Origin: Candidatus Uhrbacteria bacterium
Lineage (GTDB): Bacteria; Patescibacteriota; Patescibacteriia; UBA9934; GWF2-40-263
Assembly (NCBI GenBank): GCA_023246355.1
Contig: JAHFIQ010000006.1
Span: forward strand, 1 to 62,788
Length of the DNA: 62,788 nucleotides
Direction: 5' to 3'
The notes beneath the pieces are model-generated. The model was given only the letters and a program-made list of their open reading frames with translations, was not told the origin of the DNA and did no database searches. This document shows positions 6,144 to 54,224 of this stretch, in pieces; position 1 is the first letter of the stretch, and each line of letters begins with the position of its first letter. Made by a program: the position numbers and the translations under genes.

Positions 6144-7262
6144 ATGTCTGAACGTCCATTCAATGCTAAACGAGCGCTCGGGATTCTGGTGATCGTTTTC
6201 GCTCTCTGGTACCTCCTCAATAGCCTTGGCTTTCTCTCTGTCTCTCCAAGCGTGAATGCAGCTGGGGGACTTGTTGCGATTTTCTTCATCGGCTTGGTTG
6301 CCTCTGTTTCATCTTGCACAGCGATCCTCTCGGGACTTATCGTCGCTATCTCAGCCAATCATGCCAAGCTCCATGCAGGTGAGTCCTTGAACACTCGACT
6401 GCGTCCTCATGTCCTTTTCAATCTTGGTCGGCTCATTGGGTTCGCTGTGTTCGGTGCCATGATCGGTGCGATCGGTTCCGTGCTCTCGCTCTCAACAGAG
6501 CTTAACGCCCTGTTCGTCATGGTTGTTTCTATTTTGATGTTGGGCCTTGGAGCGAACTTGCTTGATCTCCTTCCGCCTGGATTTTTTCGATTTCACCCAC
6601 CGCTTTGGCTGGCGCGACGCATCTTGAAGCTTCAGGAGTCACATCATCCTGCGGTCTTGTTTGCCCTTGGCGCACTCACATTTTTTCTCCCCTGTGGATT
6701 CACCCAGAGCGTTCAACTTTACGCACTGTCAACCGGCAGTCCAGCCACGGCCGCGTCCATCATGATGGTATTTGCGCTGGGAACACTTCCGGTGTTGCTT
6801 GGATTGGGAGCCGCGACGTCTTCTGCTCACGGCAAGCGACTCAAGAGGATCACCCAAGTCGCTGGTATCTTGGTTCTCGTGATCGGTCTTTCACAACTCT
6901 TGAACGGAATGACCTTGCTTGGCATTTCTCTCCCCACAGCAGACAGTCAAGAAACAGCTGCGCAGCAAACAGACGTGGCGGTTATTGATGGAAAACAAGT
7001 GATCCAGATGGAACTTGGAAGCGGTTTTTACGCGCCAGACGTTCTTACGGTTGTTGAAGACGTTCCTGTGGAGTGGGACATTTACGCACCAGAGTTTATG
7101 GGCTGTGCCACACAGTTGGTCTCTCGGGGGCTTGGGATCAGTCAAACATTAAAGCCAGGTGACAATGTGGTGACGTTCACACCGAAAGATCCTGGAGAGT
7201 ATGTTTTTAGTTGTTCGATGGGGATGGTGCGCGGCACGATGATCGTCACGAAAAGTCTATGA
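6144..7262 (+). CDS. Polytopic membrane protein (TauE/SafE or DsbD-like transporter fold) fused to a C-terminal cupredoxin-like domain
   Basis: Multiple TM helices. The C-terminal soluble domain ends [18 protein letters not shown], which is Cys/Met ligand-like. Its stop overlaps the copA start (ATGA). Confidence 0.55.
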
Positions 7263-9379
7263 CGCACACACAATTCAAAATCACTGGTATGCACTGTGCG
7301 TCCTGTGCGGTGAATATCGAATCGGAACTTGGCAAACAGCCAGGCGTGAAATCTGCGAATGTGAATTACGCGCTTGCCTCTGCTGCCGTCGAGCACGAGG
7401 AGCATGTTCATGAAACGGATCTCCATACAGTCGTGAAGAACATGGGGTACAGCGTGGCGGCGTCACAAGACGATCATGCCCATCACAGCCACGATGCAGC
7501 AGCTGGTCGGCGTGCAGGGTTTTCTTTGGCGCTGGCCATTCCTGCCGTCATTCTGGCGATGATGGGAATCCTTCCCTGGGCACAAGCGATTCTATCCACG
7601 ATTGTGGTGCTAGGACCTGGCATGGAATTTCATCGGATGACGTTTCAACAACTGAAGCGCGGCCGTGCCAACATGGACACACTCATAACCATGGGCACAC
7701 TGGTTGCCCTGGCGTTCAGCTGGTGGCAGTTTTCAGTGGGAGGTGCGTTGTACTTTGAGACCGCCGCGCTTATCACAGGATTTATTTTGCTGGGTCGCTA
7801 TTTTGAAGCGCGCGCAAAAGGAAAGGCGAGTGAGGCCATTTCCAAGTTGATGGAACTTGGGGCGAAGATGGCGCATAAAGTGGTGGCTGCGGATACACAG
7901 GATGTTCCCGTTGAATCGTTGAAGATCGGTGATCGCGTTCTCGTGAAGCCAGGGGAAAAAATTCCCTTGGACGGAAAAATTATTTCTGGAGAGTCGTCCG
8001 TGGATGAATCCATGCTCACAGGGGAGAGTATGCCGATTGGGAAACGCCCGGGTGATTCCGTGTTCGGTGCGACCGTGAACCAGCAAGGCGTGCTGACGAT
8101 TGCGATCACGGCGATCTCGGGGAATACGGTGCTCGCCCAAATTGTGAGACTTGTGGAGCAGGCGCAGCAACAGAAAGCGCCGATTCAAAAGTTAGTCGAT
8201 AGGATCTCGGGCATCTTTGTCCCGGTGGTGATCGGCATCGCCGGCATCACGTTTGTTATCTGGTACATGATCACAGGCGACGTAAGTACATCCCTCATTC
8301 CAGCCGTCGCCGTGCTTGTGATCGCCTGTCCCTGCGCTCTTGGACTGGCGACTCCTACGGCGATCCTGGTTGGTACCGGCCGTGGAGCAAGAGAGGGAAT
8401 CTTGATCAAGAGCGGCGAGGCGCTTGAACGCAACCGACATTTGGATGTGGTTCTCTTCGACAAAACAGGAACGCTCACAGAAGGCAGACCTGTGGTGACA
8501 GACATGGAAGTTTCCCCCCTTGGCAAGGGGGGAGCAAGGGGGGTCTTGGAGCTCATTGCCTCCCTCGAATCCTCTTCTGAGCATCCTCTGGCTCAGGCCG
8601 TCGTGCGGTATGCAAAGGATCAGGGAGTGATCCTGAAGCCAGCTTCGAATGTGCAGTCGGTCACAGGGAAGGGAATCGAGGGGATAGTTGAAGGAAAAAA
8701 AGTCGCGATTGGGTCACCTGACTTCTTGTCTCACATTGTATCGATCGATACAAAACGGAATCAAATTGAACTGTGGCAGTCACAAGCCAAGACCGTTATT
8801 GTCGCAGCTGTCGACGGGGAAATGCTGGGCATACTGGCGATTGCTGACGCGCCAAAGCCACAAGCCAAAGAGTCCATTGCTGAGCTCAGACGCATGGGAC
8901 TCGATGTGGTGATGGTGACAGGTGATAACAGAAAGACGGCTGAGGTGATCGCGCGCGGACTTGGCATCGAGCAAGTCGAAGCAGATGTCTTGCCTGGGAC
9001 AAAACTTGAAGTCGTGAAAGCGTGGCAGGCGAAAGGCAAGCGTGTGGCATTTGTGGGAGACGGCATTAACGACGCTCCAGCGCTCACGCAAGCTGACCTC
9101 GGGATTGCCATGGGAACAGGCACGGATGTCGCGATCGAGGCTGGGCAAATTGTGCTGGTGGGTGGAGGGCCTGAGAAAGTCGTCGCCGGCATTAAGCTTG
9201 CCGCAGCCACGTATCGCGGGATCAAGCAAAATTTGTTTTGGGCATTCTTCTACAATGTGATCGCGATTCCATTGGCAGCGCTCGGGCTTCTCAATCCGTT
9301 GATTGCCTCGGCAGCCATGGCGTTCTCCAGCGTGTCGGTGGTGTTGAATTCGCTTCGGATCAAGAGAGCAAAGATTTGA
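7259..9379 (+). CDS. copA: Copper-translocating P1B-type ATPase
   Basis: HMA motif [11 protein letters not shown] transmembrane motif, DKTGTLT phosphorylation site, and GDGINDAP. The start is taken at [13 protein letters not shown]. Confidence 0.95.
8513..8545 (+). repeat. G/C-palindromic mini-insert, in frame in copA (encodes [11 protein letters not shown])
   Basis: tCCCCCCTtggcaAGGGGGGagcaaGGGGGGtc: a 7-bp perfect stem with a 5-nt loop plus a third G6 run. It lies between DKTGTLT and the SEHPLA region. Confidence 0.75.
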
Positions 9380-10284: not shown

Positions 10285-10348
10285 GTTGGGAGCCAGGCTC
10301 CCAACGTAGGCCGTAAAATCAGCTCGAGTTGGGAGCCTGGCTCCCAAC
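10285..10348. repeat. Two 21-nt perfect palindromes GTTGGGAGCC-N-GGCTCCCAAC upstream of uvrB
   Basis: Copies at 10285-10305 and 10328-10348 are identical except for the central base (A vs T). Confidence 0.8.
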
Positions 10349-10395
10349 TATGGAAACATTGTGCTATCCTGATCCTCGTGAAGACACTGATCCCA

Positions 10396-10421
10396 CCCCC
10401 TAGGACAACCGTTCTAGGGGG
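10396..10421. repeat. GC hairpin CCCCCTAG-N10-CTAGGGGG just upstream of the uvrB start
   Basis: 8-bp perfect stem, preceded by TCCCACCCCC, which also occurs in the rimK-like insert. Confidence 0.6.
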
Positions 10422-10434
10422 CGATTATGCATCT

Positions 10435-13043: not shown

Positions 13044-15584
13044 ATGCAAGATAAAATCACCATCAAAGGAGCGCGCGAACACAACCTCAAGAATATTTCG
13101 CTTGAGTTGCCACGCAATAAACTCATCTGCTTCACCGGCGTGTCAGGGTCGGGGAAGTCGTCTTTGGCATTTGATACGATTTTTGCCGAAGGGCAGCGTC
13201 GGTATGTGGAATCGTTGTCAGCCTATGCACGGCAATTTTTGGGGCAGATGGAAAAGCCAGATGTGGACGAGATCGAAGGTCTGTCGCCTGCAATTTCGAT
13301 CGACCAGAAGGCCCATGGCAGCAACCCGCGTTCCACGGTCGCCACGATCACTGAGATTTACGATTATCTTCGCGTCTTGTTTGCACGTGTGGGAACGCCA
13401 CACTGTGTGACCTGTGGTGAGGCGATTCAGAAGTTGACCAATGAAGAGATGGTGGACTTGGTTCTGGAGAAGGCAACAGGAACAACGGGCTCGATCAAGA
13501 TTTTGGCGCCGGTCGTGCGCGGCAGAAAAGGTGAGTACTACCAGATGTTGTACGATCTCTATAATTCAGGATTTGCTCGTGTCCGCATCGACGGGAAAGA
13601 ATTTCGGCTCGATGAGCCGATTAAATTGGCGCGGTACAAACAGCACACGATTGAGATCGTTGTGGATACGATTGCGGTTGCGTCGTTTTCCACCACACCC
13701 AAGGACGCCCGTCAGCGCCTTGCCGATGCCCTGGAGATCGCGGTGGATCGCGGCAATGACGTTGTGACGATCATCTACCCCGACCAGAGTGAACAGCTGC
13801 TGTCTGCCAAGTTTAGCTGTCCCAAGGATGGATTTTCATTTCCTGAAATTGAGCCGCGGTTGTTTTCCTTCAACTCGCCCTACGGTGCATGTCCTCAGTG
13901 CACAGGTCTTGGAACCGCAGAATTATTCTCGGAAGAGTTGTGTGGCCTGTGTTCTGGGGCGCGGTTGAGAAAAGAGTCGTTGTTTGTGTGGCTTCCAAAT
14001 CAGACCTCCCCCAGCCCCTCCTTGGCAAGGAGGGGAGTATCCATCGTGGATATTACCAAGATGTCGATTGCCGAGGCGGTTGAGTATTTCAAAAAGTTAA
14101 AACTTACGGAGAAACAGACGCAGATCGCCCTGTCGATCCTGAAAGAAATTCAGAATCGTTTGCAGTTTATGTTGGACGTGGGTTTGCATTATCTTACGCT
14201 CGATCGTATGGCTGGGACGCTCTCAGGTGGGGAAGCGCAGCGCATTCGACTCGCTAGTCAGGTTGGCTCCAAACTCGTTGGCGCGATGTATGTTCTGGAT
14301 GAACCAACGATCGGACTTCATCAACGAGACAATGATCGGTTGATCGAGACGCTCGAAGATTTGCGCGACATCGGCAACACGGTGATCGTGGTGGAGCATG
14401 ACGAGGACACGATTCTCGCCAGCGATTACATGGTTGAAATCGGACCAGGGGCTGGTGTGAATGGGGGGCATGTCATCGCCGCTGGGGAGATGTCAAAAAT
14501 GATCGACGATAAAAAGTCTCTGACGGCTGCGTATCTTCGTGGCGATAAAAAGATTGAAGTGCCGACAGAACGCCGTGCTCCTGGCAAGGACGCGATCAAA
14601 ATCAAGGGCGCTTCGCAGAATAATCTGAAACACATCGACGTAGAAATTCCTCTGCGACGCTTCGTGTGCGTCACGGGTGTTTCAGGGTCAGGGAAATCCA
14701 CCCTTGCCTACGAGACCATGTACAAAGCCATCTCCAAAAAACTCTATGCAACGAAGCACACGCCAGGTGCGCATCAGGCCCTGCTGGGAGTCGAGTACTT
14801 GGATAAAGCGATTCTGATCGATCAAGGCGCAATCGGTCGAACGTCGCGATCAAACCCTGCGACCTACACAGGAGCCTGGGATCCGATTCGAGACATGTTT
14901 GCTTCCACGGCTGAAGCCCGATATCGCGGGTACAAAAAAGGCCGGTTCAGTTTTAATCGTCCTGGCGGACGTTGCGAAAATTGTGAGGGCCATGGACTCA
15001 TCGCCATCGAGATGCATTTTTTGCCAACCGTGTATGTCACCTGTGATATTTGTAAAGGACGACGATTTGATCGCGAGACCCTGGAAATTACTTACAAAGA
15101 GAAAACTATTTTTCAGGTGCTGGAGATGGAGGTCGAAGAAGCGGCGACGTTTTTTAAGGACGTGCCTGCGGTGTCAGACAAACTTGAGACACTCAAACGG
15201 GTGGGGCTTGGCTATGTGAAGCTTGGTCAGCCAGCGCCCACGCTCTCGGGTGGTGAAGCACAGAGGGTGAAATTATCGACCGAGCTTGCCAAGCGGCAAA
15301 CAGGGAAGACGTTGTATCTTCTGGACGAGCCAACAACAGGGCTGCATTTTGAGGACGTAAAAAAACTCCTCGAGGTTCTCCATGAGCTTGTAAGCAAAGG
15401 CAACTCCGTGATCGTGATCGAGCACAACCTGGACGTGATCAAGACGGCTGATTGGATTATTGATCTCGGTCCAGAGGGTGGCGACCTTGGTGGGGAAGTC
15501 GTGATCGCGGGGACGCCAGAGGATGTCGCACGACATGCAAAGAGCTATACCGGACAGTATCTGAAACGGGTGTTAAAAAAATGA
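13044..15584 (+). CDS. uvrA: Excinuclease ABC subunit A
   Basis: Two ABC modules (GVSGSGKSS twice, LSGGEAQR twice) and zinc-finger Cys pairs. Confidence 0.97.
14007..14039 (+). repeat. G/C-palindromic mini-insert, in frame in uvrA (encodes [11 protein letters not shown])
   Basis: tcccccagCCCCTCCTTGgCAAGGAGGGGagta: 10-nt inverted arms at 14015-14035 that share the CCTTGGCAAGG core with the copA copy. Confidence 0.7.
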
Positions 15585-16319: not shown

Positions 16320-16378
16320 AGTGCCTGAAGAGTAACAGGTTTTTTCGCCGTTGGCAAGGGTGTGATAGGATTTTGGCT

Positions 16379-17677
16379 ATGATTCCTCCAGAAATCAAGG
16401 TGAAGAATGACGAACTGCCGGATGCGCCCGGCGTGTATTTTTATTACGATCAAAAGGATCATCTTTTGTATATTGGAAAGGCGACGTCTCTCAAACGTCG
16501 TGTGGGTTCGTATTTCGTGAAAGCACACACAGACAGAATCGGGGAGATGGTTTCACAGATTCACAGAATCGATTATCACGAAACACCCACCGTGATCGAA
16601 GCGCTCATCTTGGAGGCAAACGAGATTCACGCACGTCGTCCGAAGTACAATATCTTGGGTCGTGATGACAAAACGTTTTTGTATCTGGTGATCACGGACG
16701 AGCCTTACCCGCGACCACAATTGATTCGGGGACATGAACTTAAAGTCAGGAAGAATTATTTGCGAGTCTTTGGTCCGTACACGAGCAGTCGTTCTTTGAA
16801 GATGGCCTTGGAGATGATCCGTCGGGGTATTCCGTGGTCGACCTGTCTGCCAGGACAGCGCCGTCCGTGTTTTGATGCGCAGATCGGCAAATGTCCTGGG
16901 GTGTGCACAGGCAGGATCAGCAAACCAGAGTATCGACGCGTGATTCGGCAGTTGATTCTGTTCTTTGAAGGGAAGAAAGCGAAGCTTGAGCGGGAGCTCA
17001 AAAAAGAGATGGTGCTCGCAGCGAAGAACCTTCAGTTTGAAAAAGCGGCGTTGCTGCGTCGACGATTATTCGCACTTGAGCATATCCAAGACATTGCGCT
17101 CATCTCGCGTGAGGATCACGAACTGCCATTTACAAAAAAAGATTCCGATGGAGCCATCGATCTGATGGGACGCATCGAAGCGTATGACATCAGCAATATT
17201 TCAGGGACCTCAGCAACCGGATCCATGGTGGTGTTTATAGAAGGGAAGCCGGCGAAACAGTTGTATCGCAAGTTCAAGATCAAGACTGTGAAGGGTGCAA
17301 ACGATGTCGCGTGTTTGGAAGAAGTGATCAGGAGAAGGCTGAAGAGGGGTTTCCCCCCTGCCAGAGGGGGGACACAGGGGGGAGGGAGTAAAGAGCGAGG
17401 ATGGGAATTACCGGAGGTCATGGTCATCGACGGAGGAGAGCCGCAGGTCAATCGGGTGCAGGAGATTTTGGATGAGCTGGGTGTGGAGGTGCCGATCATT
17501 GGCATTGCCAAAGGGTTTGATCGCAAGCAGGATCGCCTTGTCTTCGATCAGGAGAATCGAGATTTGCAGCGCGTTGTCACTCGTGGGAAAGAACTATTCC
17601 AGCGCGCCCGCGACGAAGCGCATCGGTTTGCGGTAAAATACCATCGAGTCTTAAGAGGGAAGTCAATGAAACTATGA
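16379..17677 (+). CDS. uvrC: Excinuclease ABC subunit C, short form without a C-terminal (HhH)2 domain
   Basis: GIY-YIG motif (GVYFYYD...LYIGKA), UVR motif FEKAALLRRRLFALEHI, endonuclease-domain ending DEAHRFAVKYHR. Only 432 aa. Confidence 0.9.
   Translation: MIPPEIKVKNDELPDAPGVYFYYDQKDHLLYIGKATSLKRRVGSYFVKAHTDRIGEMVSQIHRIDYHETPTVIEALILEANEIHARRPKYNILGRDDKTFLYLVITDEPYPRPQLIRGHELKVRKNYLRVFGPYTSSRSLKMALEMIRRGIPWSTCLPGQRRPCFDAQIGKCPGVCTGRISKPEYRRVIRQLILFFEGKKAKLERELKKEMVLAAKNLQFEKAALLRRRLFALEHIQDIALISREDHELPFTKKDSDGAIDLMGRIEAYDISNISGTSATGSMVVFIEGKPAKQLYRKFKIKTVKGANDVACLEEVIRRRLKRGFPPARGGTQGGGSKERGWELPEVMVIDGGEPQVNRVQEILDELGVEVPIIGIAKGFDRKQDRLVFDQENRDLQRVVTRGKELFQRARDEAHRFAVKYHRVLRGKSMKL
17351..17386 (+). 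repeat. G/C-palindromic mini-insert, in frame in uvrC (encodes FPPARGGTQGGG)
   Basis: ttCCCCCCTgccagAGGGGGGacacaGGGGGGaggg has the same architecture as the copA copy. Confidence 0.75.
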
Positions 17678-25793: not shown

Positions 25794-26321
25794 ATGGCTG
25801 ATGGACGAGAAAAAGATTTGCCCGTGGTAAAGCCGTTTGAAAAGCCGGCTGTGATTGGTGCTCCCCGTGAGACGACTCCGGTTGTAGAAACACGGGAGGT
25901 ACGTGAGGGGGAGGAAGGAGTCTCAGAACCCGTAGCGATGGAGGAACCGCGCGCCATGGAGACCGCAGCTGCTCCTGCTTCGGTTGTTTCGGTACCGGTG
26001 CGCATCGCTCCCAAAATAGACGATCGTCTGGCAAAAGAAATCGAGGGAATTCTTTCAGAGGATTTGACAGATCTCTATTTGGCAATGCCTCCTGAGAAAC
26101 AGCAATTATTTAAAACCAAGGGCGAGGAGACTGCATCGAAGGTGCGCGAGTTGGTGCGGGCAGCCAAAATTAACGCCAAGAAAATTTTTCAGCTTATTCG
26201 CGACTGGCTGAAAATCGTTCCCGGTGTCAATCGATTTTTTCTCGAGCAAGAAGCAAAAATCAAAACAGATAAAATCCTGCTCGTGAGTGAGGAAGAAAAA
26301 AAACGAAACGAAACCGTGTGA
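25794..26321 (+). CDS. Hypothetical protein, first gene of the TraD/VirD4-like ATPase operon
   Basis: 175 aa with an acidic/Pro-rich N-terminus. Its stop overlaps the next start (ATGA). Confidence 0.5.
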   Translation: MADGREKDLPVVKPFEKPAVIGAPRETTPVVETREVREGEEGVSEPVAMEEPRAMETAAAPASVVSVPVRIAPKIDDRLAKEIEGILSEDLTDLYLAMPPEKQQLFKTKGEETASKVRELVRAAKINAKKIFQLIRDWLKIVPGVNRFFLEQEAKIKTDKILLVSEEEKKRNETV

Positions 26322-28867
26322 TGAGTCTATTCCAATTTGGTCTTCAAGCAACGACAGAACCTGCACGAGCCGTCACACAGGGGGATCTTTATATTTCCGG
26401 GTTGATTCTTTGGGGATTGGCCGGCGTGGGAGTGGTCATTGGACTCTTGTATGTCCTGCGTTTTGTTCTGCGCCGTGTCTCAAAAGCCAAACAAGCTACG
26501 TTTCAACGCGTGACCCTACTCATCACGCTGCCAAAATTTCGACATGAGGAGGAAAGCGAGCGGACAGGGTCCAAAGAACAAATCAAAGAAGCCATTGCGG
26601 CCGCGGAGATTTTTTTCTCTGCCGTGGGTGGACTCAAGGCTCAGCACGGATTTCATGCTTGGTTATTTGGTCGTCATGATGAAGTCGCGTTTGAAATTGT
26701 CTCGCACAACAAGCTCATCCGGTTTTACGTGTCCGTTCCTGTGGCCATGCGTCACATGATCGAACAGCAGCTTTCCGCTGCCTATCCTGACGTGTACATT
26801 GAGGAAGTTGAGGACTATAACATTTTCCAACCAACCGGCGTGATTGTGGGAAGCCACTTGGTCTTTCGACGGCAAAATTTCTTTCCGATTAAAACGTACA
26901 CGACTCTAGAAAAAGATCCGCTGAACGGCATCACTAACATTCTCTCGAAAATTCCCGAGGGTGATGGAGCTGCGTTTCAATTTTTGGTGCGTTCCTCGCC
27001 TGGCAAATGGCGAAAGCAGGGCATTCGTGTGGCGTCCAACATGCAACAAGGGATGAAGCTGGATGAGGCCATCAAAGGAAAGAAACACAAAAAAACCGAT
27101 TACTTGGAACTGGCTGGTCTTGGCGGGGACAAACAAAAAGAACCAGAAAAAGATTATCGCCTTTCGCCGCTTGAGGATCAGACAGTTAAAGGGTTACAAG
27201 AAAAGGCGAGCAAAGCTGGGATGGATGTGTGTATACGTCTGGTGAGTGCCTCGAAATCGGCTGAGTCAGCTCAGACGCTCATGCAAAACATGTTGAACGC
27301 CTTTGCGCAGTTTAACATTTACGAGTACGGCAATTCCTTTGTGAAGGTCGTGCCACGTCGCAAGAAACGAATTATCCAAAATTTCATCCATCGCATTTTT
27401 GATGAACGAAATACCATCGTCTTGAACGCCGAAGAAATGGCAAGCATCTGGCATCTCCCGCTCCCTTGGACAGATACACCAAACATCCAATGGCTTTTGG
27501 CACGCAAGGGTCCGGCGCCAGCCAATGTTCCTGGGCCTGAAGAAGGCGACATTGAACTGGGTTACAACATGTTTCGTGGGATCAAGACGCCGGTCTGGAT
27601 GAAATCTCTTGATCGGACGCGTCATACGTACATCATTGGAAAATCTGGATCCGGTAAGTCACAGTTGATCGCTAGTCTTGCCCTGCAAGATATTCGTGCA
27701 GGTCATGGGGTGGCGGTGGTTGAGCCGCATGGCGATCTGATTGAGCAAATTTTGGCCAACATTCCCAAAGAGCGCGTGGATGACGTGATTGTGTTTAATC
27801 CTTCTGACGTGGATCGGCCGATGGGACTCAACATGCTGGAAGCGAAAGACGAGAGCATGAAGGACTTTGCCGCACAGGAAATGGTCGCGATTTTTTACAA
27901 GCTGTTTCCACCGGAGATGATCGGGCCGATGTTTGAGCACCACATGCGAAACGTGATGCTCACCCTCATGTCTGACACGGAAAATCCTGGAACGATTGCG
28001 GAGATTCCTCGGATGTTCTCGGATGCTGATTTTCAACAGATTTGGCGAGCGAAGGTGAAAGACCCGGTTATTCAATCCTACTGGGTGAACGAGGTGGACA
28101 AAACCTCTGACTTTCATAAATCGGAAATGTTGGGATACCTCATTTCCAAAGTCGGTCGATTTGTGGAAAACGAAATGATGCGCAACATCATCGGCCAAAC
28201 GCGGTCCAGTTTTGATTTTCGTGAGGTGATGGACAAGAAGAAAATCTTGCTCGTGAATCTCTCCAAAGGAAAAACCGGCGATGTCAATGCCGAGCTCTTG
28301 GGACTCATCATCGTTTCTAAACTTCAGATGGCAGCGCTCACACGTGCGGACATTCCTGAGGATCAACGTCATGATTTTTATTTGTACATCGACGAGTTTC
28401 AAAACTTTATCACTGATTCGATTGCAACCATTTTGTCCGAGGCGCGTAAGTATCGTCTGAATCTCATCATTGCTCATCAATACATTGGCCAGCTCGTAAA
28501 AAATAATGACACGAAAATTCGCGATGCCGTATTTGGAAACGTTGGAACCAACTTCGTGGCGCGTATCGGACCTGAAGACGTGGAGACGCTTGAGAAACTC
28601 TACGCGCCTGAGTTCACCGGGTATGATATGATCAACTCGGATAAATTCACGTGGTACGTGAAAATGATCGTGGACAACGCGCAGATCAAACCCTTTACCC
28701 TCAACTTTAAACCACCGCCAAAGGGAGACGTTGAGCTCGCCACAGCGATCAAAGAACTTTCACGTCTGAAGTATGGCCGAGATCGGGCCATTGTGACAGC
28801 GGATATTACCGAGAGAATGCAGATGGTGAATATGGGGCCGGTAACAACGAAGCCAGGAGAGTTTTAG
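26318..28867 (+). CDS. Membrane-anchored TraD/VirD4/TraG-like (type IV secretion coupling-protein-like) P-loop ATPase
   Basis: N-terminal TM segment (LILWGLAGVGVVIGLLYVL), Walker A GKSGSGKS, Walker B FYLYIDEFQNF, then ARKYRLNLIIAHQYIGQL, typical of TraD/TraG C-terminal modules. Confidence 0.7.
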   Translation: MMSLFQFGLQATTEPARAVTQGDLYISGLILWGLAGVGVVIGLLYVLRFVLRRVSKAKQATFQRVTLLITLPKFRHEEESERTGSKEQIKEAIAAAEIFFSAVGGLKAQHGFHAWLFGRHDEVAFEIVSHNKLIRFYVSVPVAMRHMIEQQLSAAYPDVYIEEVEDYNIFQPTGVIVGSHLVFRRQNFFPIKTYTTLEKDPLNGITNILSKIPEGDGAAFQFLVRSSPGKWRKQGIRVASNMQQGMKLDEAIKGKKHKKTDYLELAGLGGDKQKEPEKDYRLSPLEDQTVKGLQEKASKAGMDVCIRLVSASKSAESAQTLMQNMLNAFAQFNIYEYGNSFVKVVPRRKKRIIQNFIHRIFDERNTIVLNAEEMASIWHLPLPWTDTPNIQWLLARKGPAPANVPGPEEGDIELGYNMFRGIKTPVWMKSLDRTRHTYIIGKSGSGKSQLIASLALQDIRAGHGVAVVEPHGDLIEQILANIPKERVDDVIVFNPSDVDRPMGLNMLEAKDESMKDFAAQEMVAIFYKLFPPEMIGPMFEHHMRNVMLTLMSDTENPGTIAEIPRMFSDADFQQIWRAKVKDPVIQSYWVNEVDKTSDFHKSEMLGYLISKVGRFVENEMMRNIIGQTRSSFDFREVMDKKKILLVNLSKGKTGDVNAELLGLIIVSKLQMAALTRADIPEDQRHDFYLYIDEFQNFITDSIATILSEARKYRLNLIIAHQYIGQLVKNNDTKIRDAVFGNVGTNFVARIGPEDVETLEKLYAPEFTGYDMINSDKFTWYVKMIVDNAQIKPFTLNFKPPPKGDVELATAIKELSRLKYGRDRAIVTADITERMQMVNMGPVTTKPGEF

Positions 28868-32787: not shown

Positions 32788-33702
32788 TTATTTTTGGACA
32801 GCGAATTCGATAATAGCTCCTGCGATATCTTGTCCTGTCACGCGTTCAAGTTCTTTGAATCCAGGATTGGCGTTTACTTCGAGCAGCAGTGGGCCTCTTG
32901 CTGAACGGATGATGTCCACACCAGCGATTTCAAGATCGAAAATTTTTGCCACGTGCACAGCGAGATCCTGTTCTTCTTGTGTCAGTACGGTCACAGAACC
33001 TGTCCCGCCGTTGGATGTATTGGCTCTCACGTCACCCGTTGGCGCTGTTCGTTCCATGGCTGCCAGGACGCGTCCCCCGAGGATAAAAATTCTCAGGTCC
33101 TTGTTTTGCGCTTCCTGGATGTATTCCTCAACGATCATCGGGTTGCCATCTCGGATCGCCAGGTACTCCGCGATCGGCTGGAGCGTCTGCGCATCAGGCG
33201 TAAAGAACACGCCCTTGCCATGCGTGCCAAAGGCGACTTTCAAGATCACAGGAAAGCCGATGTCCTGTGCGATCTTGAGAGCATCATCTGGACGGCGACA
33301 CACCCCCCATCGTGGACATGGAAGATTGTGCTCAGCAAAGATCATGTGCTGAGTGATTTTATTTTTGGCTGAGGCAAAGCTTGGAGATGCATTGATAATC
33401 TTGTAACCCGCTGCTGTGAGCATCTGAGACGCATAGGTTCTGAGAGTCGGTTCTTCAATAAAGTTTGGTCGAGAGATGATGACGTCCAGACGTGGAAGTG
33501 GTTCTCCACCATGTAAAATCTGTGGCTGCACTCCCACCCCCCTTGATCCCCCCTCGGGCAGGGGGGAAATTTCAAAAGACAAATACGGCTCGTAGATTTT
33601 TACGAGCTGATGTCCACGTTCACGTGCGGCTGCCTCAAATCGGTCAGCGCCCGTGAATTGTTCCATGGAAGGATCAGAGAAGATGAGGAGGCCTATGTGC
33701 AT
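32788..33702 (-). CDS. RimK-type ATP-grasp ligase (alpha-L-glutamate ligase family)
   Basis: ATP-grasp motifs FPVILKVAFGTHGKGV, EEYI, DLRIFILGGRV, AGVDIIRS...LLLEVNANPGF. Confidence 0.8.
   Translation of the reverse strand: MHIGLLIFSDPSMEQFTGADRFEAAARERGHQLVKIYEPYLSFEISPLPEGGSRGVGVQPQILHGGEPLPRLDVIISRPNFIEEPTLRTYASQMLTAAGYKIINASPSFASAKNKITQHMIFAEHNLPCPRWGVCRRPDDALKIAQDIGFPVILKVAFGTHGKGVFFTPDAQTLQPIAEYLAIRDGNPMIVEEYIQEAQNKDLRIFILGGRVLAAMERTAPTGDVRANTSNGGTGSVTVLTQEEQDLAVHVAKIFDLEIAGVDIIRSARGPLLLEVNANPGFKELERVTGQDIAGAIIEFAVQK
33535..33567 (-). repeat. G/C-palindromic mini-insert, in frame in the rimK-like gene (encodes SPLPEGGSRGVG)
   Basis: The sense (minus) strand reads tCCCCCCTgcccgAGGGGGGatcaaGGGGGGtggg, with the same architecture, orientation and frame as the copA and uvrC copies. 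Confidence 0.75.
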
Positions 33703-33703
33703 A

Positions 33704-34747
33704 TCATTTCGCCATGAACACACGCTCCGTTGCAACAGGATTCACGGCGTCGCGGTCACTAAGAGCATCATGCAAAAGTCCGTCTAACAAGATTTCGTCC
33801 AAGATTTGGTAAACCGTTTCCACTGCATCTGCCGTATGGAGTCGTTCTTTGAATGGCCGTGCACCCGGCACGCCTCGGAAATACCAAGACAGATGTTTGC
33901 GGAATGTTTTAATTCCTGGCGCTCCGTATTGCTCAAGATGAAAGGTGAGGTGCTGTTTCACAACCCGGATACGTTCCTCGAGGGTGATCTGTTGCGGTGC
34001 TTGACCACGCAGCACGTCGGTGATCTGTGAAAAGATCCATGGATTGCCCAGCGCGCCGCGAGCGATCAAGACGCCGTCTGTTTTTGTTTGGTCAAGTGCT
34101 GTGCGTGTAAGTGGGGCTGTGTGAATATCGCCGTTGGCAAGGACGGGGATCGAGAGCGTGCGTTTGAGCTCACCGATCAAATTCCAATCTGATTGTCCTG
34201 AGTATCCCTGGGCCTTTGTCCGTCCATGGATCGTGATCATGTCCGCGCCTGCTTCTTCGATGACTTTGGCAAACGAAAAACATTCTCGAGGATCATCCCA
34301 ACCTGTCCGGATTTTGATGGAAAGCGGAACCGTGATCGCGGCTTTCATTTTTTTGATGATCTGCGTGGCGAGTTCTGGTTCCCGCATGAGCGCCGCGCCA
34401 TTGAAGTTGTGGACGATTTTATATACGGGGCAGCCCATGTTCACATCAAAGCCTTCTGGGTGATGTTCTTTTTCGATGATGCGTGCAGCCTGCGCCATCG
34501 TGTCAGGATCTGAGCCAAAGAGTTGCTGCACGATCGGACGCTCGTCTTCGTGAATGTCGGTCATGGCGAGCGTTTTGTTGTTGTGACGTACGACAGCTTC
34601 GGCTGAGACCATTTCGCGGAAGACGATGGGAGAGTTGGAAGAGGTGGATACTGATCGAACTGTGCGGCAAAAAGAACTATCCGTCATGTCGGCCATGGGG
34701 GAGAGGGCAATGATGGGCCGCGGGATCGCCTTCCAATCGAGTTTCAT
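33704..34747 (-). CDS. dus: tRNA-dihydrouridine synthase
   Basis: LSPMADMTD, DVNMGCP, IKIRTGWD, ITIHGRT. Confidence 0.9.
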   Translation of the reverse strand: MKLDWKAIPRPIIALSPMADMTDSSFCRTVRSVSTSSNSPIVFREMVSAEAVVRHNNKTLAMTDIHEDERPIVQQLFGSDPDTMAQAARIIEKEHHPEGFDVNMGCPVYKIVHNFNGAALMREPELATQIIKKMKAAITVPLSIKIRTGWDDPRECFSFAKVIEEAGADMITIHGRTKAQGYSGQSDWNLIGELKRTLSIPVLANGDIHTAPLTRTALDQTKTDGVLIARGALGNPWIFSQITDVLRGQAPQQITLEERIRVVKQHLTFHLEQYGAPGIKTFRKHLSWYFRGVPGARPFKERLHTADAVETVYQILDEILLDGLLHDALSDRDAVNPVATERVFMAK

Positions 34748-53450: not shown

Positions 53451-53810
53451 TTATCCCCAAAATCCTTTTGTGCTTTTTGTTGATGGGGGAGCAACAGGCT
53501 TGTGTTCTGTTTTGAGTCCTTGGACAAATTGCGCAATTCGTTGCATCTCTCGTTCAACCAGTGGTCCCTCATACTCGCCAGCATGGGCTGACGTCCCTTC
53601 ATAGCTCGCGGCTTTTTGATCCACGTGGAGATTCACTTGCACCCCACCGTCTTTGTCCTCGATGTAGGCATGATAGCGTGGAAAAAGTTCTCCGGTCACA
53701 CGCAGCGTGTAGCTCAACTGTCCTTCGTGTCCACGGTGTTCACCGTAGCCGAGGCGACGGATGAGACCACGGGCGTTTTCGTTTAAGGGTCCTGAAAAAA
53801 ATTGTTTCAT
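53451..53810 (-). CDS. Hypothetical protein, tandem paralog 1
   Basis: Shares FPR(Y/F)HA...G(V/I)(Q/E)V(N/D)LH(V/F)D...YEG..V..EM.R(I/L)(A/I)Q with the adjacent ORF. Confidence 0.5.
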   Translation of the reverse strand: MKQFFSGPLNENARGLIRRLGYGEHRGHEGQLSYTLRVTGELFPRYHAYIEDKDGGVQVNLHVDQKAASYEGTSAHAGEYEGPLVEREMQRIAQFVQGLKTEHKPVAPPSTKSTKGFWG

Positions 53811-53813
53811 AAA

Positions 53814-54224
53814 TTACGACTTGTACGTAAACAAAATTTCAAACAGAGATCGTTTGGGTTTTGAAGGAGGCACCGTGGTGCGACCTGTTGCATGCATTGG
53901 GTGATTGATTGATCCCAGTGATGGCGCTCCACGCATCGCCTGGATAAGACGTCGCATTTCCTCATCAACACGCACGCCTTCATACGCCCATGGCTGATCG
54001 TGATTTCCTTTGTGGGTGATACTGTCCAGTGCATCAAAATGCAAGTCGACTTCGATGCCTTGACCACGAACAGCGACGAGCGCATGGAATCGTGGAAAGG
54101 CTGGATCATTGAGACGCCGATGGTAACACGCTCTTCCAGACTCGACACAATGCCGAACATAGCCAGCACGAGCCATGAGTGCATCAGAGGTTTGTTTTTC
54201 TGTGTTTGAGATAAAGCGTCTCAT
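53814..54224 (-). CDS. Hypothetical protein, tandem paralog 2
   Basis: See paralog 1; 136 aa. Confidence 0.5.
   Translation of the reverse strand: MRRFISNTEKQTSDALMARAGYVRHCVESGRACYHRRLNDPAFPRFHALVAVRGQGIEVDLHFDALDSITHKGNHDQPWAYEGVRVDEEMRRLIQAMRGAPSLGSINHPMHATGRTTVPPSKPKRSLFEILFTYKS

Follow-up and report, generated by a model that had tools for sequence, protein, structure and literature searches.

A family of 33-42-nt palindromic repeats probably inserted in frame into conserved genes of Candidatus Uhrbacteria

Introduction

Palindromic repeats that reside in genes and are translated in frame are already known, namely the Rickettsia palindromic elements (RPEs) and the intragenic members of the repetitive extragenic palindromic sequences (REPs). 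The subject of this study is a new, very small and untagged element of Candidatus Uhrbacteria, a lineage of the Candidate Phyla Radiation (CPR), found in a stretch of 62,788 nt (assembly GCA_023246355.1, contig JAHFIQ010000006.1, positions 1 to 62,788; hereafter the window). It is a short hairpin built on runs of C and G, and it occurs in copA, uvrC, uvrA and a RimK-family ATP-grasp gene. The four segments are probably copies of a family of non-autonomous palindromic repeats with units of 33-42 nt, which would be inserted and lost at the DNA level and would survive in permissive loops of the encoded proteins.

The GTAG/CGTC-tagged REPs described by Di Nocera, De Gregorio and Rocco in 2013 are 20-40-nt palindromes in which a stem of 5-13 bp, rich in G and C, closes a short loop. 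They are dispersed, often as inverted dimers, and some lie in frame within open reading frames (ORFs) of known proteins, to which they add about 10-30 residues; uvrA and uvrB are among the intragenic hosts, as are further genes of replication and repair (PMC3733652). The Uhrbacteria element resembles them in being short and dispersed with a G/C-rich stem, and more copies are present on every related contig examined. It differs in its homopolymeric C6/G6 arms and its additional G6 run; one subfamily moreover has a tail that is not palindromic. In addition, all four window copies are intragenic whereas REPs are predominantly extragenic, no gene for a REP-associated tyrosine transposase (RAYT) is seen in the window or in the related loci (up to 21 kb), and the element resides in CPR bacteria, a group outside the coverage of the tagged-REP survey (PMC3733652).

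RPEs (Ogata et al. 2000, 2002) are described as palindromic selfish DNA that is inserted in frame into unrelated conserved genes and translated, and their tolerance is ascribed to the surface positions of the inserts (PMC10969869). The Uhrbacteria element is likewise an in-frame palindromic insert in conserved protein genes. However, RPEs measure ~100-150 bp (3-4 times longer), encode a conserved peptide and are confined to Rickettsia (PMC10969869), whereas the present element is 33-42 nt long, occurs in several frames and in both orientations, and has a core motif found in many phyla. Judging from the homopolymer-arm composition, sequence homology to RPE-1 to RPE-10 is unlikely, and the two are set apart here by description.

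The doublets known as REPINs, that is, REP doublets forming hairpins (Bertels and Rainey 2011), lie outside genes and are linked to a RAYT gene that is present as a single copy and bordered by the repeats (PMC3116915). Inverted hairpin doublets with a short spacer are also found among copies of the present element (loci L036 and L072, and uvrB of L121), as is non-autonomous multiplication, whereas the window copies are singlets inside genes. Miniature inverted-repeat transposable elements differ as well: they have IS-derived terminal inverted repeats and target-site duplications and usually measure 50-500 bp, whereas the present copies are not flanked by direct repeats where filled and empty sites were compared, do not show terminal inverted repeats plus a target-site duplication, and fall below this size range.

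The SDR repeats of Nostoc and other cyanobacteria (small dispersed repeats, attributed to Elhai et al. 2008) are reportedly mobile hairpin repeats of 21-27 nt that nest in themselves and in other repeats. To our knowledge, they have been described neither in CPR bacteria nor as a cross-phylum family. By description, the present element resembles them in its loop nesting and in the abundance of its motif in cyanobacteria, and the cyanobacterial motif copies may belong to one of Elhai's SDR families. The G+C-rich clusters or double-hairpin elements of fungal, sponge and placozoan mitochondrial DNA are also short hairpins of compact genomes that occasionally lie in frame; being organellar and unrelated in sequence, they offer a behavioural analogy only. 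The literature consulted contains no description of this element, nor of in-frame palindromic repeats in CPR bacteria.

Four copies of the element in the window

The pattern CCCCCCT-N5-AGGGGGG, with up to two mismatches, has four matches in the 62.8-kb window (G+C ~51%), where 0.08 are expected. The extended 30-nt pattern CCCCCCT-N5-AGGGGGG-N5-GGGGGG, with up to three mismatches, identifies the same four loci against an expectation of 0.00 from 100 shuffles. Three of them match the full pattern exactly: copA at 8514-8543 (plus strand), uvrC at 17353-17382 (plus strand) and the RimK-family gene at 33537-33566 (minus strand). All four copies lie within long ORFs and keep the frame, and the sequences and peptides that the first-pass annotation had quoted were confirmed in the window. 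The copies are as follows.

8513..8545, plus strand: copA copy, sense within the ORF at 7211-9379 (plus); TCCCCCCTTGGCAAGGGGGGAGCAAGGGGGGTC; 33-nt 'cosmopolitan' subfamily
17350..17391, plus strand: uvrC copy, sense within the ORF at 16373-17677 (plus); TTTCCCCCCTGCCAGAGGGGGGACACAGGGGGG followed by the diverged tail AGGGAGTAA; peptide FPPARGGTQGGGS; tail-bearing subfamily
33528..33569, minus strand: copy in the RimK-family ATP-grasp gene, sense within the ORF at 32788-33735 (minus); TTTCCCCCCTGCCCGAGGGGGGATCAAGGGGGGTGGGAGTGC, 42 nt; peptide (E)ISPLPEGGSRGVGV(Q)
14007..14039, minus strand: uvrA copy, antisense within the ORF at 13044-15584 (plus); plus strand TCCCCCAGCCCCTCCTTGGCAAGGAGGGGAGTA; interrupted-run subfamily

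In the hairpin of the element, a variable loop of 3-5 nt separates a C6T(T) arm from an (A)AG6 arm; a 5-nt spacer and a second G6 run follow, and this run provides in folding an alternative pairing partner for the C6 arm. Stems are 8-9 bp long, with predicted energies of -16 to -20 kcal/mol. On the flanks, (T)TT precedes C6, and the right side reads A-N3-A-G6 with or without the tail TGGGAGTGC. The fold z-scores of the inserts (+0.35 to -0.94) are uninformative, since shuffles that preserve dinucleotides also keep the runs of C and G and fold just as stably. At the gathering threshold, Rfam families matched four tRNAs in the window and nothing over the motif, and among 18 motif-bearing loci the sole match was a HEARO RNA away from the motif. 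When translated, the copies form Pro/Gly-rich loops of the type S/F-P-P/L-x-x-G-G-x-x-G-G/V.

Alignment of the copies separates three subfamilies. The 33-nt 'cosmopolitan' form, TCCCCCCTT-NNN-AAGGGGGG-ANNNA-GGGGGG-TC, is found in copA and in uvrB of L121; in the copA copy the hairpin C6TT-GGC-AAG6 is followed by AGCAA and then by G6. The 42-nt form corresponds to the RimK-family copy, with the loop TGCCCGA and the non-palindromic tail TGGGAGTGC, and is hosted by rimK and uvrC (where the tail has diverged) as well as by mnmA, a transaldolase gene and a lamin-tail-domain (LTD) gene of relatives. The interrupted-run form has CCCCTCC or CCTCCCC arms and a GGGGGA or GGGAGGGG run, and is present in uvrA of the window and in uvrA and uvrB of L121. 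The reverse complement of the window uvrA copy has the hairpin CCCCTCC-TTGCCAA-GGAGGGG, then CT, then GGGGGA, so that on the gene strand its extra run consists of C and precedes the hairpin; the core CCTTGGCAAGG is common to the copA and uvrA copies. The unit of ~33 nt assumed in the first-pass annotation therefore holds for copA and uvrA, whereas members of the uvrC/rimK subfamily reach ~42 nt owing to the tail; the RimK insert adds 14 residues.

A reading of the tail TGGGAGTGCAG 3' of the uvrC copy as native uvrC sequence was rejected as the simplest one, because the same tail trails the copies in rimK, mnmA, transaldolase and the LTD gene. It is possible that the tail represents a 3' flank carried along from uvrC, as L123 retains the tail without the hairpin.

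The copies are lineage-specific insertions in loops

In UvrC, 120 Uhrbacteria homologues were compared, of which 112 are free of the insert; the nearest of all, P0002 (85% identity), is one of these. The site is a 13-residue gap relative to the solved Bacillus and Deinococcus UvrC structures, about 9 residues ahead of the IDGG strand of the RNase H-like endonuclease domain. The RimK-family assignment is based on a Pfam RimK match. The five closest RimK homologues (73-82% identity) read YLSF-L-GER-ILH at the position where the window protein reads YLSF-EISPLPEGGSRGVGVQPQ-ILH, a gain of 14 residues (42 nt), and E. coli RimK has an 8-residue gap at this site. In the AlphaFold model of the window RimK, the insert is a coil between two strands (residues 45-60) and the sole low-confidence block, with a predicted local distance difference test score of ~65 against a model mean of 92.5.

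In UvrA, the very close relative L122 lacks precisely the 33 nt at 14007-14039 (LPAHK|SIVDIT); B. stearothermophilus UvrA has a 12-residue gap there. In CopA, more than 25 close Uhrbacteria orthologues (70-78% identity) share the arrangement VTD-xx-LS-AES-LALVA at the insert site, and the window protein is 7 residues longer. P0244 CopA (87% identity) has in common with the window a decayed copy, SHLAKGGPRGV, and P0265 CopA carries in the same loop an independent copy of another subfamily, SPLPEGGLRGEGV. Alignment with A. fulgidus CopA places this loop in the linker right after the DKTGT phosphorylation motif.

When set against solved or predicted structures, each insert thus coincides with a gap or a loop, in agreement with the expectation of the first-pass annotation that these are variable linkers. 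That annotation had also regarded the segments as lineage-specific insertions, and the alignments bear this out: judged by orthologue comparison, all four window copies are lineage-specific insertions, as the closest UvrC, UvrA, RimK and CopA orthologues are without them. The closest UvrC, RimK and CopA homologues are labelled Candidatus Uhrbacteria or Patescibacteria at their sources, and a Patescibacteria contig is syntenic with the window at 39-47 kb.

Two of the host proteins are also short. Uhrbacteria UvrC comprises only ~434 residues and terminates ahead of the helix-hairpin-helix domain that usually forms the C terminus; lengths across the 120 homologues range from 406 to 506 residues. 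The window UvrA has 846 residues and is missing a stretch of ~80 residues equivalent to positions 338-418 of B. stearothermophilus UvrA.

The element is conserved as DNA and not as peptide

The four copies were initially thought to be read in the same phase and in the same sense orientation, and this constancy was used as an argument; in fact both vary, in the window as well as in relatives. Within the window, two phases and both orientations are used. The first C of the copA copy (8514, ORF start 7211) and that of the rimK copy are at codon position 2, giving xCC CCC CTx (TCC CCC CTT in copA, TCC CCC CTx in rimK), whereas in uvrC the first C (17353, ORF start 16373) is at codon position 3, giving xxC CCC CCT (TTC CCC CCT). 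The peptides quoted earlier, SPL.. and FPP.., already differed in this way. The uvrA copy is antisense because the full pattern matches there on the minus strand only, with the gene on the plus strand.

Relatives extend the range further. At the same RimK loop, other lineages have independent copies that yield SPPLTRGDKGGS and SPPFQGGVRGG, the latter of which requires a CCC CCC reading and hence the third phase, and an antisense copy in the LTD protein of a relative gives TPTPLNPPSG. Among the matches listed for other phyla, 43 long host ORFs include 17 with sense copies only, 15 with antisense copies only and 11 with both, and the sense-only copies are distributed over phases 1, 2 and 0 at 10:6:1. 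The shortage of phase 0 can be attributed to a survival filter, since AYTRA, the usual spacer, brings a TAA or TGA stop into that frame; an excess of one phase likewise results from stop codons in the other.

Because the nucleotide sequence is constant while phase, orientation and peptide vary, the element is, on sequence grounds, conserved as DNA and not as peptide. The variability of frame and orientation is therefore evidence for a DNA-level element, and the proposal of the first-pass annotation that random frame and orientation would speak against such an element is mis-specified. Furthermore, the uvrC copy of L249 has the arms CTCCCCCT/AGGGGGAG in place of TCCCCCCT/AGGGGGGA, which amounts to two compensatory pair changes, and the stem itself is therefore maintained.

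Nesting, mobility and turnover

The hairpin loop of the element holds further palindromes in L122 and L121, namely a second, CCGCCGAAGCCTTGGCGAAGGCGG, and a third, CCGCCCGAACGACCGTTCGACGGTCGGGCGG, which is seen in both orientations. The two-level composite of element and nested palindrome (71 nt) is identical in uvrC of L122 and mnmA of L127, which have unrelated flanks and derive from one groundwater sample. A three-level composite of ~113 nt occurs twice in a single uvrC of L121 (positions 10397 and 11117) with one mismatch. The window rimK copy, tail included, corresponds to the un-nested base of the composites of L121, L122 and L127. Nested composites that recur nearly unchanged at unrelated sites indicate, as far as sequence comparison can tell, copy-and-paste mobility. 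Inverted doublets are found in uvrB of L121 (head-to-head), L036 and L072, and the four window copies are singlets.

Copies also turn over. The window, L247 and L121 all have an insert at the uvrA site, that of L247 being of the same type and orientation with another loop and that of L121 a nested composite; in L122, a closer relative, the site is empty. Decayed copies are present in P0244 CopA and in UvrC of L247, and insert-bearing UvrC proteins are scattered over clades whose nearest neighbours are insert-free.

Relatives carry other small palindromes as well. In copA of L121 (2225-2365) there is a tandem pair of CCTTCAGGCCCGTTCGGAGGGAACGCCCCTGAAGG, a further tiny in-frame palindromic insert family, and uvrA of L121 (7044-7184) has a palindrome insert of the CTTCAAGGGCT / AGCCCTTGA type. 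In L125 (~620-680), GCTCGCCTCGCTAACGCTTTGGCGTAGCGGGC is nested in the element within the LTD protein. The C6/G6 element is thus one of several tiny in-frame palindrome families in these genomes.

Distribution beyond Uhrbacteria

A scan of GTDB with one genome per species returned at least 120 stretches with the pattern, from which no abundance or taxonomic statistics can be drawn; the following statements apply to the matches listed. They come from many cyanobacteria, Planctomycetota, Nitrospirae, relatives of Geobacter and three Patescibacteria, and the motif is abundant in contigs of Nostoc, Microcoleus, Microcystis and Scytonema. The cross-phylum consensus is CCCCCCTT-NNN-AAGGGGGG-AYTRA-GGGGGG, with the motif C6TT-N3-AAG6-N5-G6, which is often lengthened to a full 41-nt palindrome by an upstream C6, and inverted doublets are frequent. 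Within ORFs of at least 200 residues lie 59 of 174 matches in other phyla, and 115 lie outside them. Pfam matches identify the host ORFs as real genes, which encode several aminoacyl-tRNA synthetases, ValRS, kinases, CobN, a non-ribosomal peptide synthetase and a prepilin peptidase, as well as UvrA in a Nitrospirae, UvrC in a Microcoleus and PolX in a Saccharibacteria.

In one case, the window uvrA copy and an intergenic copy on a Phycisphaeraceae contig (L072 2672-2760) agree at every position over 34 nt (100% identity). At this locus, a canonical C6/G6 copy is found 19 nt from the uvrA-like copy in tail-to-tail arrangement, and the DNA is apparently non-coding. The chromosome of Microcystis ichthyoblabe (L032 6482-6960) contains twelve head-to-tail 37-nt units, CCCCCCTTATCAAGGGGGGACTAAGGGGGGATCGGCA, which follow each other spacer-free; because it has no spacers, this array is not a CRISPR. 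In addition, the full motif is present in 114 viral or proviral contigs of IMG/VR (L133-L246), which are a possible route between phyla.

Association with excision-repair genes

About 7 of the 8 palindromic inserts of L121 (21.5 kb) are in uvrA (3 sites), uvrB (2) and uvrC (2), and in L247, L248 and L249 copies occur in uvr genes only. This sample is biased and non-independent, as insert-bearing uvrC genes were the starting point for choosing the Uhrbacteria loci and common ancestry accounts for some of the copies. In the 43 cross-phylum host ORFs among the matches listed, ~4 are repair-related, aminoacyl-tRNA synthetases are at least as frequent, and most hosts are large multidomain housekeeping enzymes. 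The tagged-REP survey found the same leaning to uvrA, uvrB and other repair genes and judged it hard to call fortuitous (PMC3733652).

The link to DNA repair drawn in the first-pass annotation is accordingly no more than suggestive: uvrA, uvrB and uvrC are heavily loaded in relatives and a published precedent exists, and in other phyla the hosts are mainly housekeeping genes. Targeting and tolerance are not separable as the cause of the bias towards excision-repair genes. A specific DNA-repair tropism was considered and is not established, given the few repair hosts in other phyla and the biased Uhrbacteria sample.

Origin of the element

The first-pass annotation had proposed a selfish, insertion-tolerated palindromic element, similar to RPEs and much shorter, and this proposal is supported by the absence of the inserts from orthologues, by their loop sites and by identical copies in unrelated genes. 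According to the mechanism favoured here, copies would be gained and lost in the chromosome at the DNA level, and most insertions would land in genes because the Uhrbacteria CPR genome is almost all coding. The survivors would be those that add a multiple of three bases, lie in a stop-free phase and orientation and occupy a permissive surface loop; they would be translated as Pro/Gly-rich loops, presumably neutral or near-neutral for the host proteins. The copies may be moved in trans by an enzyme that recognises hairpins in single-stranded DNA, such as a RAYT, an IS200/IS605-like HUH tyrosine transposase or a comparable activity, and mobilisation of the HUH type is suggested because the loop nesting and the doublet arrangement fit it.

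Several observations weigh against mobility of this kind. The CopA insertion is not clean, as the net gain is 21 nt and not 33, and part of the target sequence must therefore have been replaced. Neither a target-site duplication nor a target motif was found at the few filled/empty pairs (~10 copies), and in none of the aligned copies is the stem bordered by GTAG or CGTC, which sets the element apart from the tagged REPs. All eight UvrC copies, although from different lineages, share site, phase and subfamily, a pattern that a single early gain followed by many losses would explain as well as repeated gain, and gene conversion between pre-existing copies, instead of transposition, could spread identical composites. 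Finally, no mobilising gene was found in the window, which represents ~6% of a ~1-Mb genome, or in the relatives' loci of up to 21 kb. Ten unannotated ORFs of the window gave no Pfam match, the remaining ones being judged housekeeping by eye or synteny and not all scanned, and no transposase family is present among the called genes of the related contigs examined.

It is unlikely, though conceivable, that the element is instead a domesticated nucleic-acid structure, with a role in cis (ribosome pausing, mRNA stabilisation, or pausing of transcription or replication within these operons) or with three homopolymeric hexanucleotide runs prone to slippage, which would switch excision-repair genes on and off as a mutator contingency locus. 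Stems are indeed kept in orthologous copies whose loops differ (uvrA of the window and of L247), the L249 copy has compensatory changes, predicted energies of -16 to -20 kcal/mol speak for stable stems, and relatives have many copies in uvrA, uvrB and uvrC, a load that in the case of REPs was hard to regard as fortuitous (PMC3733652). However, conservation of the stem is equally expected if a mobilising machinery recognises the hairpin. Each copy is missing from the closest relatives and some are decaying, so none is required, and the hosts in other phyla, among the matches listed, are functionally unrelated. The G6/C6 runs are also shorter than typical phase-variable tracts. A local origin without mobility, through replication slippage or template switching (quasi-palindrome correction) in variable linkers, with the likeness stemming from G/C runs, is improbable. 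It would agree with the length-variable linkers that hold the inserts, with palindromes that nest and expand at the same spots, as template switching predicts, and with the lack of target-site duplications at filled/empty pairs. It is difficult to reconcile with 71-nt and ~113-nt composites that are identical or nearly so at unrelated sites, with a 42-nt element whose non-palindromic tail is common to rimK, uvrC, mnmA, transaldolase and the LTD gene, or with 34 nt that are identical between a CPR uvrA and a planctomycete intergenic copy.

Selection at the protein level, by which the (S/F)P..GG..G peptide would be a useful flexible linker recruited convergently, is very improbable. Pro/Gly-rich loops are structurally benign and the inserts do lie in loops, but this explanation is contradicted by nucleotides that are conserved over phases and both orientations while the peptides differ, and by the same DNA being common in intergenic regions of other phyla among the matches listed. 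The chance of an assembly or sequencing artefact, arising from poly-G errors or chimeric metagenome joins, is close to negligible. The contig is of the metagenome type and homopolymer runs are error-prone, yet the copies keep the frame, the same proteins appear on 3-8 independent contigs, and related copies are present in independent ENA, NCBI, JGI and Logan assemblies and in cyanobacterial isolate genomes. The Uhrbacteria repeats may also be part of something larger: C6TT-N3-AAG6-N5-G6 could represent a single cross-phylum family, CPR included, among the smallest mobile DNAs, with copies as alike as the 34 of 34 nt noted above, and moved by a widely conserved hairpin-processing activity and preferring hairpin loops and excision-repair genes. 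This extension is doubtful; if it were true, the element would both remodel protein loops and modulate repair capacity.

The region upstream of uvrB and other features of the window

A hairpin in the leader of uvrB had been proposed as a relative of the element.

10389..10424, plus strand: uvrB 5' leader hairpin, GATCCCACCCCCTAG-N10-CTAGGGGG; not a family member

The hairpin reported at 10396-10421 does exist, and the leader RNA has a minimum free energy of -23.4 kcal/mol (z = -5.3 versus shuffles). Its kinship with the family did not hold: it is found at the same position in three other Uhrbacteria, namely L121, L247 and partly L248, and since it is positionally conserved with different loops, it is an orthologous leader structure and not a copy of the element.

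Two copies of the inverted repeat GTTGGGAGC-N3-GCTCCCAAC (10285-10305 and 10327-10349) lie 42 nt apart in the intergenic region upstream of uvrB, and L121 has GGGAGCTAGACTCCC twice at the equivalent place. These paired repeats before the uvrB-uvrA cluster look like a putative paired operator, possibly an SOS-type box.

Elsewhere in the window, two adjacent paralogous ORFs on the minus strand (53451-53810 and 53814-54224; 119 and 136 residues) share PR(Y/F)HA...V(N/D)LH.D, and neither has a Pfam match. The ORF at 26318-28867 encodes 849 residues, and its L121 counterpart contains T4SS-DNA_transf and TrwB_AAD_bind, which are type IV secretion coupling-protein families; such a coupling-protein-like ORF is an unusual neighbour for a CPR housekeeping cluster.

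Significance

The repeated loading of uvrA, uvrB and uvrC keeps the targeting or modulation of excision-repair genes a live question. The element is near the lower size limit of mobile DNA, and its composites, which move as units, offer a tractable system for defining the minimal mobilisable structure. For the analysis of proteins, many of the odd Pro/Gly-rich 'low-complexity' loops (PPLxKGG.., SLGEGG.. and the like) seen in CPR bacteria, cyanobacteria and planctomycetes are probably mobile palindromes in translation and not motifs with a function, and masking is called for when such proteins are aligned, placed in phylogenies or modelled in structure. In-frame palindromic 'gene parasites' thus reach even the ultra-compact genomes of CPR bacteria, in which there is almost no intergenic space.

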